A stretch of DNA of 10,301 nucleotides. It comes from a virus (Duplodnaviria > Heunggongvirae > Uroviricota > Caudoviricetes). This document shows, piece after piece, positions 1 through 9,060 of this stretch (positions are counted from its first letter, which is position 1; every line of letters begins with the position of its first letter). The stretch lies in the IMG/VR virus record IMGVR_UViG_2531839668_000006; one strand, given 5' to 3'. The notes under the pieces are model-generated. The model made no database searches. It saw only the letters and a program-made list of their open reading frames with translations, and was not told where the DNA came from. Position numbers and translations under genes: made by a program.

Positions 1-213
1 TTTTTTTTTACCAGAAAGTATACTCTCTGCATACTCTGGCTTAATCGATAATAAAACTTTCATCAACACCTCCCTGTAAGACAATCTGCTTAAATGCTGA
101 ATCAGTTAGTGGTAAAAAACCCCAATAATCACTATTGGTATAACCTGTAATATTCATGATTTCATCACGAATAACTCTTTTTTCCAAAGGGAAATTATAA
201 GTAAACCGTATAA

Positions 214-621
214 TTATCGGATAATTTTTTTCATATATAGAAGCTGTAACTCATCTTCATCAAAAACGCTATAAGGTTCACAGTAATTCTTAAATTCCTC
301 ATAAGTTAAGAAATCGTGAATATCTTTAATTTCCTGAACCACACACACTGAAGTTGCAACAGATCTAAACCGAGCTGGACCTTGTCCATCTGAAGTACGA
401 TAAATAAGCAAATTATCTCCAGGCTTTAGGCTGGCTACCCCATGCATTTTTGTTAAGTATACTTTTTCAATACTGTTGGTATGTGATATATCAGCGATGA
501 TACCAGCACTCTCATTGTGGAGTTTTGACTCAGGGAAAAGACGTGTATGCCATGCAGGATAAATACTTAATAGATAATTTCTCCCCTGCAATTTGACTAA
601 GGGATAATTAGCATAGCTCAT
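214..621 (-). CDS. Hypothetical protein (135 aa), second gene of AT-rich cargo cassette; fold unassigned, weak PUA-like/ASCH-like beta-barrel impression
   Basis: ATG at 621..619 preceded by AAGGAG with about 7 nt spacing (reverse complement of 628..633). Visibly AT-rich compared with the phage core. Fold suggestion rests only on loose motifs (LQGR near N-terminus, LKPGDNLL loop). Confidence 0.5.
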   Translation of the reverse strand: MSYANYPLVKLQGRNYLLSIYPAWHTRLFPESKLHNESAGIIADISHTNSIEKVYLTKMHGVASLKPGDNLLIYRTSDGQGPARFRSVATSVCVVQEIKDIHDFLTYEEFKNYCEPYSVFDEDELQLLYMKKIIR

Positions 622-624
622 TTT

Positions 625-1095
625 TTACTCCTTCCATACCAAGTTTTTAAAGTATACACCTTCTTGCCCATTAATCGTAGAAAGATTTTTCCTCGCCTTT
701 AAAACAAAACCATATTTAGTTAATAAGCGAATTAATCCTGAATGCTTATCAAATATAGTAACATATACTTCTTTTAGTTTGTTTCTCATAGCAAATTGAA
801 ACATAATTCTAATAAAACGCTCTCCAAGTTTGGTTCCATGAGCATCGATTTTAAATGTGCCAAGCTTTACTCGCTTCATCTTTGGAAACGTTGGAGTCAT
901 ATCACTCAACTCTTCATCTTCTATTTTCAAATAGAGAAAACCATCGATTTCACCTAATTCATTACGTGATACAAACGCCTTATTTTTACCTTTTGAGAGA
1001 AACCAAACATCAAATCCTTCATAATCAGCTCTTAGGCTGTTAAAAAACGGATCTTTTAAATCGATATCACTAAAAAATTTTTCCTCGATAGACAT
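625..1095 (-). CDS. GNAT-fold (acetyltransferase-like) protein, 156 aa, first gene of AT-rich cargo cassette
   Basis: ATG at 1095..1093 with an upstream AGAGGAA Shine-Dalgarno-like sequence. C-terminal half has GNAT-like topology: VKLGTFKID, an HGTKLGER loop, then EVYVTIFDKHSGLIRLLTKYGF resembling GNAT motif B. Called from motif memory only. Confidence 0.5.
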   Translation of the reverse strand: MSIEEKFFSDIDLKDPFFNSLRADYEGFDVWFLSKGKNKAFVSRNELGEIDGFLYLKIEDEELSDMTPTFPKMKRVKLGTFKIDAHGTKLGERFIRIMFQFAMRNKLKEVYVTIFDKHSGLIRLLTKYGFVLKARKNLSTINGQEGVYFKNLVWKE

Positions 1096-1143
1096 CCAGT
1101 TCCTCTTCTAATGGCAGCGAGCAAGTGACCTTATCCTTACATG

Positions 1144-1170
1144 TTAATAGATAACCACAGCTGTAGGCAA
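1144..1170 (-). promoter_or_regulatory. Candidate sigma70 promoter for the cargo cassette (-35 TTGCCT, -10 TATTAA on - strand) with an 8-bp palindrome ACAGCTGT in the spacer
   Basis: Reverse complement of 1165..1170 is TTGCCT and of 1144..1149 is TATTAA, 15 bp apart, about 45 nt upstream of the ATG at 1095. Palindrome ACAGCTGT lies at 1157..1164. Confidence 0.25.
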
Positions 1171-1271
1171 TTACATACATTAAGCTCTATCAAACAACGA
1201 GCAAACTTAAGCACCGCTACAACTCAACCTAGCTGATGCCTGTTTTGACGATTACCCTATCAGCGCGCGCT

Positions 1272-1290
1272 CGTATCCCCGCCACGCCTG
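1272..1290. other. cos-like GC-rich core resembling the P2/186 cohesive-end sequence
   Basis: Reverse complement of 1272..1290 is GGCGTGGCGGGGATACGAG. As I recall them, the 19-nt cohesive ends are GGCGAGGCGGGGAAAGCAC (P2) and GGCGTGGCGGGGAAAGCAT (186), so the first 13 nt match the 186 form. Position (after the SOS operon and cargo) fits a P2-like prophage map. Recalled sequences are unverified. Confidence 0.4.
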
Positions 1291-1333
1291 CCCGCTTTAT
1301 GTAGTGGTTTTCATGCACCTGCATGATCTACGC

Positions 1334-1357
1334 AAAAGCCCGCCAGAACTGGCGGGC
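1334..1357 (-). terminator. Rho-independent terminator on the - strand, downstream of the lipoprotein gene
   Basis: GC-rich inverted repeat GCCCGCCAG (1338..1346) / CTGGCGGGC (1349..1357); the - strand transcript then reads UUUU (plus-strand AAAA at 1334..1337). Confidence 0.5.
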
Positions 1358-1461
1358 CTTAACACAAAAGATCCTCAAACGATCATGCGATCTCATGCAG
1401 CATAGACATGCGCGTTTATGCAGAATGTGCAAAATCGTAACATACTCAGCAAGCGTGAAAC

Positions 1462-2252: not shown

Positions 2253-2486
2253 TCAATGCAGCCAGCTGTCGTCTTCCCACACCTTCTGCATAATTTTCAT
2301 CACTTGTTTTCTTTCTTCGTCCAGTTGCAGTCCGGTCAGTTCCACACCGTTAGAGCTACCTTTACGGATACGGATTACCGTTTTGGGATACAGGGGGCGC
2401 AGATTGCGGTAAAGCTCGGATTCAAGGGCGTCCAGGGTAGACTGGCTAATCTTCTGCTCTTTATCGATCATTATTTCAATGCGCAT
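2253..2486 (-). CDS. dinI: DinI-family protein (77 aa)
   Basis: From the internal ATG at 2486..2484 the product MRIEIMIDK...LDALESEL...ERKQVMKIMQKVWEDDSWLH aligns along its length with E. coli DinI as recalled (MRIEVTIAK...IDALAGEL...QETWESADDW). GAGGTG lies 6 nt upstream of the ATG. Confidence 0.85.
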   Translation of the reverse strand: MRIEIMIDKEQKISQSTLDALESELYRNLRPLYPKTVIRIRKGSSNGVELTGLQLDEERKQVMKIMQKVWEDDSWLH

Positions 2487-2496
2487 AAAAGTCACC

Positions 2497-2685
2497 TCAG
2501 TTGATGACATCCATTGAGCGGTTGTATTCGTGGCTTCTGATTTTTGCCATGAGTTCATCAGTCAATTCAGAAACCCACTGCAGAGCCAGCCCCTTCTCTT
2601 CATCACTACACTCACTAGCCGCTACAAGCTTAAGAAAAAAATCAATGCGCTGGAGCTTCAAAGACTCCAAAAAATAGTCCTGCAT
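2497..2685 (-). CDS. Small protein (62 aa), first gene of the LexA-controlled operon; positional analogue of the 186 Tum antirepressor
   Basis: ATG at 2685..2683 with a strong AGGAGG about 6 nt upstream (reverse complement of 2692..2697). Sits directly downstream of a LexA-box promoter and 10 nt upstream of the DinI-like gene. No family recognised from the sequence. Confidence 0.55.
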   Translation of the reverse strand: MQDYFLESLKLQRIDFFLKLVAASECSDEEKGLALQWVSELTDELMAKIRSHEYNRSMDVIN

Positions 2686-2838: not shown

Positions 2839-5253
2839 TTAATACAGGTTCCGCCACTTATCATCTTCCTGCAAACGCTGGTTCCGATAGAAGATACGCA
2901 GGCCTGCTCCTGACGGAATACTGCCGCCGCGAAGGAGTAAATCGACCTCTTTCTCGCTGCCATCAAATCCTCTGGATTTCAGTTCATAGACGAGCTGCTG
3001 TCGTTGATGGTCTGTAATTCGCTGTTTGTAGTCTCTACGCCGTTTCGGTTTCACCAGACGTAACCTTGCAGCCAATTCCCGGCGCTCCTTTTTGTTCATA
3101 CTGTGCAGGTAATCGTGCAACACCTTGTCATCCATGCGGGTAATGTCCGTTCTGGGGTCCCCATCAGCTGATTTATCTTTCTCCTGTTGGTTCAAATTTT
3201 CAGCAAGGGGACAGTTATTGCCACGAGTCCAAGGGGCGCAAGCGCCCTGGTCGGCTGCCGCCTCCTGAACGTCAACGGCCTTACGAACCATTTTCCACTT
3301 CACGGCATGAGTGCAGATCTTGCCCTCTGCAATAGGTGACCAGATGCCATAAATACGAATGCCGTGATCGCCATAGGCGGTCGGCTCTTCGTTGATTTCA
3401 TAAGCAGTTCTGATGAGGTGATATTTGCGGGGAACCAGTACGCCACCCTGCTTCATGATGTAGGTGGCAAAACAACCAGCATCAGCAGCAGCCAGAATGG
3501 CATCAAGGCGCGGGTTATCCAGTACCGGCGCACCTGCTTTTTTGTCCCCCTGTTGCCTTGCCGCCTGACCAGCCAGCAATCGCAGTTCACGGTAAGCCTG
3601 ACGCCCCGGAATGCCAAAGAAGCGGAATTGCTGAACACGATGCAGAGACGCCCAGGCATTAACGTATTCAGCATTATCACGCAGGGATTTCCCCGTTTCC
3701 TTGCTGATCTCGCCAGCCAGACCACGCCCGTCAATGTTCTTACTGATGTATTTCGCGATGTAGCTTGTTGGCGTACCTTTGCGCGGGTTAATCAACTCAG
3801 ACTTAAAGCGCGGCCCAGTGTTATTGCCCAGCTCCTCGCGGTCTTCACGGATGGCAAACTTACGCAGTAATGCAGTGATGGTGCGGCGGTCTTTTTTGCG
3901 CATAAAACACAACAGGTGCCAGTGAACTGTACCGTCATGATGCGGCTCAGCCACCCGCACGCCATACCACCGCAATCCGGCTTTGTGCATCGCCTTACGA
4001 AATGCAGCAAACATGCCGACCAGATAATCACTGCTTTGTCTTACCGTCGCATTTGTCCAGGTTGGGTTGGGCCTGCCGTTATTTAGCGTGGAATGGAAAC
4101 GTGACGGACAGGTGATGGTGTAGAAAACGGCGCAGTCACCGCGCATTTCCGCGATAAGCTCCAGACCTTTAACACAGGCCATCATCTCATTGCGGCGATG
4201 CGCTGGGTTGCTGCTGCTGGCGTTTACCACATCCTCCATGTCCAGCGTGTCGCCGTCTTCGTTCACCAGTTCATGAGAACGGAAAAACTCCAGCGACTTA
4301 CGGCGCTGCTCACGTTTATGCATCACGGCTTCATAGCTGACATAAGGAGATGCTTTTTTGCTGACAAGGCAGACTGCACGCAACTGCTCTTCCCGCCATT
4401 CGCAACGCATCTTCCATAATTTCCGATACCACCAGTCGGCGCACAACATACGCGCCAGCGAACCCGGAATGAGTTCATAGGGCACGGGTTTACGGCGGTT
4501 TCTTTTCCGACGGAGTTGCTCAAACGCAGGCGGGATGACATCCAGACGCAGGGTTTCCGCTGCCACCCTTTCCCATGTATTGCGGATTTCTTCTGGCTTA
4601 ACGTCATCGGTGGCATACAAATCGCCACAAGCGGCATCAAGGCACATACTCATATGCGCAGCTACCAGGGTGGACAGGCGTTTCACCTGATCCTGACTCA
4701 TTTCAGGCAGGATCAGCAGGCCGTCCAGCCCTTCATGGCTTGCCATAAAGCGAAAAGATGCAGATAGCTGACTGTCGCGTACATGCTCCAGTCGTTCCAG
4801 ACATGGCTTAATCGTCTCACGTAAATAGCGGGAATAAGCCTTTGGCCTGCCCAGGCTGCTGAAGTATTCAATACGTTGCATCAGCGGCTTGCTGATATGG
4901 GAAGGCTGGGCGTTGACGTCCGCCAGAATGACCATATCCGGATTAAAACGCTGCTGCTCATGCGCCAGCTTTGCCCGACTAATGAGCTTATCCTGTTCCA
5001 TTTCGCGCTGGACAGGATCACGGGATTCATTAAAGAAATAACGCTCCCAGACCTGATCACTCAGCGCCTCACGGCGCAGCTGTTCCTGCTCGTTATCGGC
5101 AGCGTACAGAGTGATCAGGTTTGAAAGCGTAGAAACCGGCGCAACTTCCACCGGGTCCAGATAAGGGTTAATGGCCTTTTTCGGGCTGTTCCATGAGAAC
5201 GATGCGGCAGCTTCGTTAAAGCCGCAGCAGTTGTTCATATCGGCATGACTCAT
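2839..5253 (-). CDS. A: P2 gpA-type rolling-circle replication initiator (804 aa)
   Basis: Contains an HUH-type motif VHWHLL (codons at about 3916..3924) and paired active-site tyrosines SYIAKYISK (Tyr codons 3762..3760 and 3750..3748), as in phiX174/P2 gpA. Start ATG at 5253..5251 overlaps the Dam stop codon (ATGA). Confidence 0.9.
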
Positions 5254-6107
5254 GCACGTACTCCGTACACGGCAGAACTATCCACGCCACGCGAATAATC
5301 AAATCCCACCCAGCAGCGCGGCCCGGAAACAGCAATGATTTCTGTTGCTGATTTACCCTCGCCAGCTGCCACACCGATGCTGCGTTTTGCCTTGATGTAG
5401 TGGTGAGTAAAATTGCGATACAGCGAACGGATCAGGGATGTGTCACTGTTAGAAACAATGACCGGATGTCCTTCTGATGACCGATGTTCAAGAACAGATG
5501 CCAGGTGATACTGGTCATCTTCAGTGAAGCCGTCAGTGTGATAGCCGGAAAACGTACCGTCATACGGCGGATCGCAATACACCACATCCCCCGCCTTCAA
5601 CATCGCCAGCGTTTCATCAAAGCTGGCGCAGATAAACGTTGCTCGCTGGGCCTTTTCTGCAAATGCGCGAATTTCTTTTTCAGGGAAATACGGATTTTTA
5701 TAATTACCGTAGGGAATGTTGAAATGCCCGCTCTTGTTATAGCGACATAAACCACGGTAACCGTGACGATTGAGATACAGGAAATATACCGCTTTCATGA
5801 AATCAGTAATTTCAGTTGAGTAATTAAACTCCTGCCTTATGTTGTAATAAGCCACCTCCCTGTTTGCGATCTCAAATAAAACTCTGGCGCGAGATATAAA
5901 CGATTCACAATCAGCGGCAACCTTTTTATAGAGGTTGATTAAATCAGGATTAATATCCGCAACCAGATAGCTGGGATAATCCGTCTCCATCATCACAGCA
6001 CAGGAACCCGCGAAAGGTTCAACCAGTCGCGGGCCAGCAGGAAGATGTTTTTTCAGTTCGGACATTATGGCAGTTTTATTTCCCGCCCATTTCAGGATGG
6101 TGCTCAT
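5250..6107 (-). CDS. dam: DNA adenine methyltransferase, Dam/D12 class (285 aa from internal start)
   Basis: Motifs [18 protein letters not shown] (AdoMet binding) and DPPY (catalytic). Preferred start is the ATG at 6107..6105, preceded by GGAGGTG and overlapping the TraR-like stop (ATGA); the longer ORF from 6167 overlaps the upstream gene. Confidence 0.9.
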
Positions 6108-6331
6108 ACAGCACCTCCGTTGTAATGTTTGCCTTTCAGCTCTGCGATTTCCTGACAGGTAATGCAAAGCTGCACACCCGGAATGGCACGGCGGCGTGCT
6201 GGCGGAATTGGCGCTTCACACTCAATGCAAAGCACGCGGGACACGCCCGGCGTTTTGGCACGGGCAGCACGGATATGGCGTTGGCGTTCTTCTTCAACGC
6301 GCTGCTGTACGAGATCCATTGCATCAGCCAT
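6104..6331 (-). CDS. TraR/DksA-family C4 zinc-finger protein (75 aa)
   Basis: CIEC...(16 residues)...CITC zinc-finger spacing typical of phage TraR/DksA-like proteins. Start ATG at 6331..6329 overlaps the upstream stop (TAATG). Confidence 0.8.
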   Translation of the reverse strand: MADAMDLVQQRVEEERQRHIRAARAKTPGVSRVLCIECEAPIPPARRRAIPGVQLCITCQEIAELKGKHYNGGAV

Positions 6332-8158: not shown

Positions 8159-8283
8159 GATGCAACATTCCTCGTTTAATGATGATTAATCAGGACGAAT
8201 ACGGATCGTTTGTACTTTGTGAACACCATAAACATACGATCGCAAAATGAAATCGTCAAGATAAAAGTTCACTTGGAGTGACC
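8159..8283. promoter_or_regulatory. Lysis-lysogeny switch region between apl and cI with candidate pR and operator-like inverted repeats
   Basis: Candidate - strand promoter: -35 TTGACG (reverse complement of 8254..8259), 17 bp, -10 TATGTT (reverse complement of 8231..8236). Inverted repeat GATCGTTTGT (8204..8213) / ACATACGATC (8232..8241), one mismatch, overlaps that -10. A second repeat TTAAT-N4-ATTAA lies at 8176..8189. No convincing rightward promoter for cI found. Confidence 0.45.
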
Positions 8284-8853
8284 ATGAATTTGGAGAAAGG
8301 CGGACGAGGCGCTATAGAGCGCATGGTAGAAGCTTATGGATTCAAAACTCGACAGGCGTTGTGCGATCATTTAGGAATCTCTAAAAGTACACTCGCCACA
8401 CGCTACATGCGTGACTCATTCCCAGCAGAATGGGTAATCCAGTGCGCCCTTGAAACGGGCACCTCGCTTAATTGGCTCACAACCGGACATGGTTCAAAGC
8501 AAACTTCAGGTAATACAAATACTATGGAAGTTGCTAAATATGTATTATCTGATGGTGCCTTGCGTGAAGACGGTTTTTATATTTTTGATAAGGGATTTCT
8601 ACCCTCTACGTTTAAAAAACCTTTTGTCATCACAGATAACAATTCTGAATTTATTTGTGATAAAGAATTTGATGATATACGTGATGGTAAATGGGTAATA
8701 AGTATTGATGGCGAAGTAACGATCCGTGACATTACTCGTTTACCCGGTGGAAGAATCTTCGTCGAGGGTGGAAACAGAGCCTTCGAATGTAAGATAGAAG
8801 ACATTGAAATAATTGGTAAAATTATAAGTTTAACAGTCAAGTATGTTAAATAG
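8284..8853 (+). CDS. cI: 186-type CI repressor (189 aa)
   Basis: N-terminal HTH region (AYGFKTRQALCDHLGISKSTLATRYMRDSFPAEWVIQCALETGTSLNWLTTG) matches the 186 CI-type repressor pattern as recalled. Length matches 186 CI (about 192 aa). GGAG lies 5 nt upstream of the ATG at 8284; the ORF-track start at 8278 is a GTG. Confidence 0.8.
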   Translation: MNLEKGGRGAIERMVEAYGFKTRQALCDHLGISKSTLATRYMRDSFPAEWVIQCALETGTSLNWLTTGHGSKQTSGNTNTMEVAKYVLSDGALREDGFYIFDKGFLPSTFKKPFVITDNNSEFICDKEFDDIRDGKWVISIDGEVTIRDITRLPGGRIFVEGGNRAFECKIEDIEIIGKIISLTVKYVK

Positions 8854-8868
8854 CACCGGGAGGAAACT

Positions 8869-9060
8869 ATGCTTGGTAAGGTATTTTTTGTGGTTTTGTC
8901 ATGTTCTTTGTTATTAAACCCACTAACTACCTATGCTAGAAATTATCCCTGCTCAGGGAAAAAGGGAGGTGTTTCTCACTGTACCTCAGATGGCAAATTC
9001 GTTTGCAATGATGGAACTATTAGTAAATCCAAAAAAATCTGTACTAAAAACTCACGATAA
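8869..9060 (+). CDS. Small secreted Cys-rich protein (63 aa) between cI and int
   Basis: Strong GGGAGG with 5 nt spacing before the ATG at 8869. N-terminal hydrophobic signal-like segment ([22 protein letters not shown]), then a Lys/Gly/Ser-rich region with four cysteines. AT-rich. Confidence 0.55.

Follow-up and report, generated by a model that had tools for sequence, protein, structure and literature searches.

The stretch of DNA analysed here, 10,301 nucleotides of the virus record IMGVR_UViG_2531839668_000006 and referred to below as the window, holds at its left end (1..1095, minus strand) the promoter-proximal part of the GNAT-EVE/ASCH module that PADLOC lists as PDC-M11, carried as cargo of low guanine-plus-cytosine (GC) content in a P2/186-like prophage, where it lies between the cos site and the portal gene. 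A preliminary description of the window had drawn this region as an undescribed two-gene cassette at 214-1095, consisting of a GNAT-fold protein and a partner of no clear family. Its two open reading frames (ORF1 and ORF2; Table 1) are indeed there, but its boundary at 214 is the product of a one-base deletion, and its gene count falls short, as the unit has at least three genes: that of a GNAT acetyltransferase, that of a second protein (the reader), whose frameshifted front part is ORF2, and that of an ASCH-domain partner, which runs off the edge of the window. Taken as a whole, that is, the identification as PDC-M11 together with a mechanism in which one enzyme would write a chemical mark and another erase it, this is the best explanation that we can offer, and we consider it slightly likelier to be right than wrong.

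We assigned the genes by comparison with protein family models. ORF1 and ORF2 match the PADLOC model PDC-M11A (PDLC04419, 357 positions) with E-values of 1.1e-58 and 1.4e-48, and a third, out-of-frame ORF further left matches it with an E-value of 4.8e-9; the same three ORFs cover positions 3-153, 161-291 and 305-352 of phrog_6345 (352 positions). Because these matches are consecutive along both models, the three ORFs belong to one family, and the intact 193-residue reader of a relative matches PDC-M11A with an E-value of 5.9e-69. Neither the claim of novelty nor that of a partner without a family survives this comparison. In Pfam there was no significant match for ORF1 or ORF2, a Swi3 match with an E-value of 0.042 being noise. 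The single intact polypeptide described by PDC-M11A is not what the window encodes, since a conserved TAA, followed by a restart at an ATG, divides it in two, and its second part is then frameshifted. As for the ASCH partner, the window from 63 to 1 translates to MKVLLSIKPEYAESILSGKKK, which agrees in full with the beginning of the corresponding gene in a relative, and the full gene is present in three relatives (L001-L003). The full protein of L001 matches PDC-M11B with an E-value of 1.7e-49 and Pfam ASCH with an E-value of 5e-9. The ASCH gene shares its first 23 nt with the reader gene's end (window 41..63) and apparently has a GGGAGG ribosome-binding site of its own, as judged by eye.

The GNAT-reader-ASCH module is thus already catalogued in three places. 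Bell, Wolf and Koonin (2020), extending an account given previously by Iyer et al., reported (PIN)-GNAT-EVE operons that almost always include an ASCH protein and often an AAA_17 ATPase, of which the form that lacks PIN is frequent in beta- and gamma-proteobacterial prophages and the PIN-GNAT-EVE forms adjoin restriction-modification (RM) systems of type I; all of these modules were uncharacterised according to those authors (PMC7641849). The GNAT, the PUA-like EVE domain, the ASCH gene, the AAA_17 gene and the prophage location of that operon type are all found in the window or its direct relatives. The same arrangement is listed, with the same accessions, in the table of P2-hotspot loci of Rousset et al. 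(2022), with the GNAT and the reader labelled 'hypothetical'. PADLOC gained 145 phage defence candidates, made up of one gene or of several, that are untested and were chosen by their embedding in RM, BREX or DISARM systems; PDC-M11 bears the PDC prefix, but is unnamed in the main text of that work (Payne et al. 2024, bioRxiv 10.1101/2024.01.29.577857). All three ORFs of the window match component A of PDC-M11 and the next gene of the relatives matches component B, in the order A then B, whereas A is here divided between two genes, with its second part frameshifted, and B lies almost wholly outside the window; PDC-M11 itself is a prediction by guilt-by-embedding, not a validated system. As a discovery, therefore, the cassette adds little, given that the operon type, the PADLOC entry and the locus in the 2022 table pre-exist. 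It does carry a lesson for annotation, namely that a homopolymer frameshift and a window edge can together make a known system look like a novel two-gene cassette.

As the preliminary description had supposed, ORF1 is GNAT-like, and we are confident of its GNAT fold. Among its invariant residues are H86, T88 and G91, in the putative acetyl-CoA loop, and Y111 and H118. The intact reader has a PUA-superfamily fold of the EVE/ASCH-like kind and resembles the DNA modified-base readers THYN1, VcaM4I and the N-terminal domain of McrB. In profile-profile comparison it aligns collinearly with its own ASCH partner, with weak statistics (E 0.0027), pairing LLSIyP with LLSIKP and IYRT with IYAT; in this alignment the reader consensus is without the partner's GxKxxExR octapeptide (GKER), so that the reader looks like a motif-less relative of the protein encoded next to it. 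In the ASCH partners the octapeptide residues K20, E23 and R25 are present in 87 out of 87 and G18 in 82, with only G18 and K20 falling inside the window. The best-conserved motifs of the reader, WHTRLFP and D[VI]SHTNSIxK, lie within residues 22-55 (window 460..560, minus strand), and its invariant residues are H25, E37, D44, N49, S50 and K53. These motifs sit in the lowest-confidence loop of the structure model, with a predicted local distance difference test (pLDDT) score of 60-69, and the conserved residues have the look of an active site or a binding site, more than of a linker. With 337 clusters (50% identity) out of 1.84 billion representatives, the reader family is small, and some of its forms are extended N-terminally to 500-630 aa.

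To see how constant the arrangement is across species, we scanned one genome per species with profiles built for this analysis and kept 80 loci (L010-L089) from many phyla. The GNAT and the reader were fused in one protein of ~350 aa at 78 of these loci, the split form being found at only two (Kosakonia and Providencia, in the window's clade). The ASCH partner followed directly downstream on the same strand at 74 loci, and 66 of these 74 adjacent pairs overlapped by exactly 23 nt, the rest by 26 or 29 nt. The 23-nt overlap, unusually rigid, occurs in Proteobacteria, Firmicutes, Bacteroidota, Spirochaetes and others, a tight coupling of translation that spans phyla. An AAA_17 gene was present within 4 kb at 22 of the 80 loci. 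The module was also found outside recognisable prophages in many phyla, and some of the surveyed loci (L019, L085 and L057) were broken.

The two ORFs of the window have the same orientation and good ribosome-binding sites, as first described: a Shine-Dalgarno-like GAGGA precedes the start of ORF1, and an AAGGAG for the reader gene is contained in the last codons of the GNAT gene. Between ORF1 and ORF2 there is only TAA (625-627), AAA and then ATG (619-621), and neither a promoter nor a terminator was predicted between them. A purine-rich Shine-Dalgarno-like stretch, a stop and a close start are also found at the junction in Klebsiella, Kosakonia, Providencia and Aeromonas, and because this stop-start junction recurs in each genus we regard the division into GNAT and reader genes as a stable derived architecture, rather than a pseudogene. 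In protein searches the pair (156 aa plus 193 aa) turned up in Enterobacterales and Aeromonas alike, with identities as low as ~55-60%. The GNAT and reader genes of this clade of Enterobacterales and Aeromonas prophages are translationally coupled.

Another way to view the cassette is by its setting in the prophage. The GC content of 214-1095 is 0.336, compared with 0.457 for the window as a whole and 0.53 for the replication gene, and the GC content at third codon positions is 0.27-0.28 in the cassette against 0.57 in the replication gene. Of 5,426 complete E. coli genomes, no more than 8 contain window 1-1250, while window 1250-1460 is common to more than 1,280 E. coli records; similarity to more than 1,200 records starts at ~1250-1263. 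The low GC content and the rarity of the cassette together mark it as foreign cargo, in agreement with the preliminary description. The transition coincides with the cohesive-end site: GGCGTGGCGGGGA, the first 13 nt of the phage 186 cohesive end, has a single occurrence in the window, at 1276-1288 on the minus strand, against 0.01 expected by chance, and cos is the border at which the conserved backbone of the phage gives way to the island of cargo. Relative to cos the cassette is on the portal side, where in phage 186 the interval up to the portal gene is only ~196 bp. In the relatives the portal gene is 2.1 kb to the left of the window start. Lying between the replication endonuclease gene gpA and the portal gene gpQ, and adjoining cos, the cassette occupies the place that had been pointed to as a defence hotspot, and the gpA-gpQ cos-adjacent site of P2-like phages is indeed a documented hotspot, mainly of defence systems expressed from the lysogen (PMC9122126).

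In the relatives three more genes of the island follow between the ASCH gene and the portal gene; they encode an AAA_17 P-loop protein (opposite strand; E 8e-19), a second, weak ASCH-like protein and a putAbiC membrane protein. The block of the 156-aa, 193-aa, ASCH, AAA_17 (opposite strand) and ASCH-like genes recurs in two other settings, a P2-like remnant in Klebsiella and a lambdoid-type Aeromonas prophage (NinB, Rha), the latter with SLATT_5 instead of putAbiC. Since these five genes are found together in both settings, the block moves as a unit. The genes after the ASCH partner occupy 6906..8697 in L001 and 7425..9021 in L007, the second ASCH-like protein having 125-131 aa; for its membrane protein the island has putAbiC in E. 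coli, Kosakonia and Providencia, and in Aeromonas SLATT_5. The AAA_17, ASCH-like and membrane genes could be a second module, of a sensor and a membrane effector, or part of the same system.

The copy in the window is broken by the loss of a single base. At 224-230 the window and strain LD91-1 have T7, where both of the intact relatives that we aligned have T8, so that on the coding strand ATG AAA AAA AAT TAT CCG becomes ATG AAA AAA ATT ATC CGA TAA, and the stop at 214-216 is the product of the one-base deletion in the homopolymer. In all 7 other cassette-bearing genomes the match is one base longer than the query. The second gene has 582 bp (193 aa) in two of the three relatives examined, and LD91-1 has the 408-bp frameshifted ORF, sharing with the window both the tract length and a linked single-nucleotide polymorphism (SNP) at 573. 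The exact 135-aa product (WP_248698633.1) occurs on 10 contigs under several accessions, and an A6 allele of the tract also exists (P0115). Therefore, we take the frameshift to be an inherited allele at a locally unstable tract, and not an error that arose once. Other genera do not conserve the tract, and the idea that A8 serves as a conserved phase-variation switch was rejected, as the runs that encode these residues are interrupted in Klebsiella, Aeromonas, Kosakonia and Providencia. The frameshifted reader ends at residue 132 of 193 and loses residues 133-193. In the structure model the lost segment contains strands and helices of high confidence (residues 136-183, pLDDT 87-97), and because these belong to the core of the reader, the module copy in the window is probably inactive. 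Many reader proteins in the databases (from Salmonella, E. coli and Klebsiella) are labelled 'partial' and end at about residues 119-133, at contig ends; short-read assemblies thus often break near the A-tract or AT-rich stretch, perhaps through a repeat between co-resident prophages or through low coverage.

For the intact module we propose a mechanism. The GNAT, positioned by its reader subunit, would acetylate a base of RNA or DNA from acetyl-CoA, the N4 of cytosine being the most economical guess for the position acetylated. The ASCH partner, produced in a fixed ratio through the gene overlap, would remove the acetyl mark by means of the invariant Lys and Glu of its GKER motif. The GNAT-reader/ASCH pair would then act as an enzymatic toxin-antitoxin system working by abortive infection, with the logic of DarT/DarG: infection would upset the balance, or supply the modified nucleic acid that the reader prefers, whereupon acetylation would block translation or replication and the infection would be aborted. 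The likeness to DarT/DarG lies in this proposed logic only, of a writer enzyme and a mark-removing hydrolase that are encoded together; there the modification is ADP-ribosylation of a DNA base, as opposed to the acetylation proposed here, and the folds are unrelated. That the module defends its host by a writer, reader and eraser in the manner of a toxin-antitoxin system is an inference to which we give clearly less than an even chance. The more specific version, a reversible nucleobase-acetylation immunity in which the GNAT writes under the guidance of a catalytically diverged ASCH/EVE-like reader and is restrained by a paralogous, catalytically competent ASCH eraser, is more doubtful still. 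The role of the cassette against phages, considered apart from any mechanism, is a reasonable candidate, as the preliminary description had put forward; PDC-M11 is listed among defence candidates, the site is a defence hotspot, and a putAbiC gene lies in the same island of the relatives.

The chemistry proposed for the eraser has a precedent in a 2026 preprint, in which 19 of the 19 ASCH proteins tested, including ZmASCH of Zymomonas mobilis, deacetylate in vitro the N4-acetylcytidine (ac4C) of tRNA, with the octapeptide's Lys and Glu as catalytic residues (bioRxiv 10.64898/2026.02.27.708502). Our ASCH partner shares with these ac4C amidohydrolases the GxKxxExR octapeptide, invariant for K, E and R, and it is a homologue of ZmASCH (PDB 5GUQ; E 6e-12), which itself matches PDC-M11B with an E-value of 3e-29. 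The YqfB-type enzymes have instead a GK[T/S]R motif, and YqfB gave no match to the partner profile, a weak control. The invariant ASCH motif, the motif-less reader and the fixed 23-nt overlap across phyla make the writer/reader/eraser hypothesis directly testable, for which the naturally split E. coli form and the spontaneous frameshift alleles of the reader are convenient material. If the hypothesis is true, base acetylation would be a new anti-phage effector chemistry, with DarTG-like logic running on acetyl-CoA, and enterobacterial prophages, in which writer and reader are naturally separate, would present the two functions already dissected genetically.

Several observations weigh against this mechanism. 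ZmASCH was first reported as a metal-dependent ribonuclease acting on single-stranded RNA (ssRNA; PMC5615036). It is also encoded alone (ZMO0922, L090 5001..5447), beside an unrelated secreted protein of 375 aa and argJ, and so differs from our ASCH partner in not being encoded beside a GNAT-EVE gene; we had considered it as the partner of a Zymomonas GNAT-EVE gene, which would have let its biochemistry be carried over directly, and rejected this because its upstream neighbour is the unrelated secreted protein. Being an orphan first reported as a ribonuclease, ZmASCH leaves room for our ASCH partner to act not as an eraser but as a nuclease or a regulator. The solved structures closest to the GNAT are N-alpha protein acetyltransferases, not nucleic-acid acetyltransferases, and for this reason the GNAT fold does not indicate the substrate. 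For the prophage form Bell et al. prefer counter-defence or the acetylation of aminoacyl-tRNA (PMC7641849). The PDC systems of PADLOC are explicitly untested (bioRxiv 10.1101/2024.01.29.577857), and our literature searches found no experimental study of any family member with respect to defence, toxicity or acetylation. As the module is both frameshifted and cut by the window edge, no functional conclusion is possible for this genome. Lastly, a scan of the ~175 bp between cos and ORF1 (1096..1269) found no sigma-70-like promoter on the minus strand. Transcription of the cassette in the lysogen might come from a weak or regulated promoter of its own, or from read-through out of the tum-side operon. 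In phage 186 that operon is LexA-repressed.

Whatever the intact module does, the copy in the window may be a decaying remnant, non-functional cargo on its way to loss, and we consider this an even call. The A7 frameshift is inherited, as the 10 contigs and the shared tract and SNP of LD91-1 indicate, and the A6 allele is a second, independent frameshift; the lost segment includes well-predicted strands and helices and reaches past the point where the reader aligns with the ASCH barrel; and a few loci elsewhere in the survey are broken as well. On the other hand, the GNAT gene and, in LD91-1, every downstream gene are undamaged and share 99-100% identity with their counterparts in the intact relatives, so that any decay must be very recent. 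The ASCH gene has what seems to be its own ribosome-binding site, a low level of slippage during transcription of A7 could give back some complete reader, and there is a small chance that A7 is a homopolymer miscall common to the assemblies. A different reading concerns the purpose of the module. In the proposal of Bell et al. the prophage GNAT-EVE shields the phage from host RM (PMC7641849), and the module would then serve counter-defence or self-protection, with the GNAT-EVE protein acetylating phage DNA or host nucleic acids to evade restriction and the ASCH partner regulating expression. In the same proposal the partner may be a DNA-binding regulator, and fusions of helix-turn-helix and ASCH domains exist (PMC7641849); the module adjoins cos, one end of the packaged genome; and the reader fold resembles that of the modified-base readers named above. 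We nevertheless consider this reading improbable, for the gpA-gpQ hotspot is filled mainly by defence systems expressed from the lysogen (PMC9122126), the island also carries an Abi-type membrane protein, the Lys, Glu and Arg conserved in every one of the 87 partners go beyond the needs of a pure DNA-binding regulator, and the module is also found outside recognisable prophages in many phyla.

It is likewise unlikely, in our estimation, that the GNAT is a classical toxin acting on aminoacyl-tRNA in the manner of TacT, AtaT, ItaT or KacT, in which case the PUA-like domain would be its handle on tRNA, and the ASCH protein an antitoxin or partner that is non-enzymatic or cleaves RNA. PUA and ASCH domains typically bind RNA, which speaks for this reading, as does the tight gene overlap, typical of toxin-antitoxin pairs. 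GNAT toxins acetylate charged tRNAs (cited in PMC7641849), and ZmASCH both binds and cleaves ssRNA (PMC5615036). The cassette further resembles the type II systems with a ribbon-helix-helix (RHH) antitoxin (TacAT, AtaRT, KacAT and ItaRT) in having a small GNAT that is a plausible toxin, a tightly coupled operon and a location on mobile DNA. It differs from them in that the GNAT gene comes first and its partners are a PUA-like reader and an ASCH protein. No ORF for an RHH antitoxin was present between cos and ORF1, that is, upstream of the GNAT gene, or after ORF1, no GNAT-toxin model in Pfam, NCBIfam or PADLOC gave a match, and no sequence or structural similarity to the tRNA-acetylating GNAT toxins was found. 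We therefore rejected a GNAT/RHH toxin-antitoxin pair, as the preliminary description had done. A housekeeping or neutral role, in which the pair would be a hitch-hiking writer and eraser of an ac4C-type mark that tunes host or phage tRNA and has no part in conflict, appears most improbable to us. It would fit with ASCH proteins being tRNA ac4C erasers and with E. coli having writer and eraser genes of its own, TmcA and YqfB. It sits poorly with the patchy distribution and small size of the family, with the low GC of the cassette, with the movement of the block between prophage types and its association with RM and BREX, and with the failure of the YqfB-type ASCH protein to match the partner profile, weak as that control is.

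Table 1. Features of the window, from left to right.
Feature	Position	Strand	Remarks
Start of ASCH partner gene (PDC-M11B), 21 codons	1..63	-	Runs off the left edge
Intact reader gene, 193 aa	41..621	-	PUA-superfamily EVE/ASCH-like; PDC-M11A 166-357
Out-of-frame reader tail	41..187	-	PDC-M11A 310-357
ORF2, 135 aa	214..621	-	Frameshifted reader gene; PDC-M11A 166-296
Homopolymer, A7 on coding strand (A8 in intact alleles)	224..230	-	Site of the -1 frameshift
GNAT acetyltransferase gene (ORF1), 156 aa	625..1095	-	PDC-M11A 11-160
AAGGAG Shine-Dalgarno for reader gene	628..633	-	Inside the last codons of the GNAT gene
P2/186-type cos cohesive-end sequence	1270..1288	-	13/13 nt match to the start of 186 cos
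Terminator-like GC-rich hairpin followed by TTTT	1334..1357	-	By eye; in the place of 186 terminator t95b
Lipoprotein-like ORF, 243 aa	1462..2193	-	N-terminus LAVILTGC; phrog_1353 match, E 4e-105
DinI/Tum-like gene	2253..2558	-	
Replication endonuclease gene	2839..5253	-	gpA position
Dam methylase gene	5250..6167	-	
Cox/Apl-like and CII genes		-	
CI gene	8278..8853	+	
Integrase gene	9093..end	+	

The rest of the window is the early/lysogeny arm of the P2/186-like prophage, and its features are collected with those of the cassette in Table 1. The terminator-like hairpin ends the tum-side operon just before cos; having only four T, it was not called by our terminator scan, which needs at least 5, and differences between strains at 1347/1348 fall in its loop. 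The lipoprotein-like ORF was considered as a homologue of phage 186 orf97, which is annotated 'blocks 186 infection', as it has the same position and length (243 aa); with a BLASTP E-value of 4.5, we reject homology and treat the correspondence as positional only. This ORF is missing from all 8 complete E. coli genomes that have the GNAT cassette, from which it follows that the two sides of cos vary independently. Between the CI and integrase genes lies a 63-aa ORF (8869..9060, plus strand), hypothetical in relatives, with a signal-peptide-like N-terminus and several cysteines.

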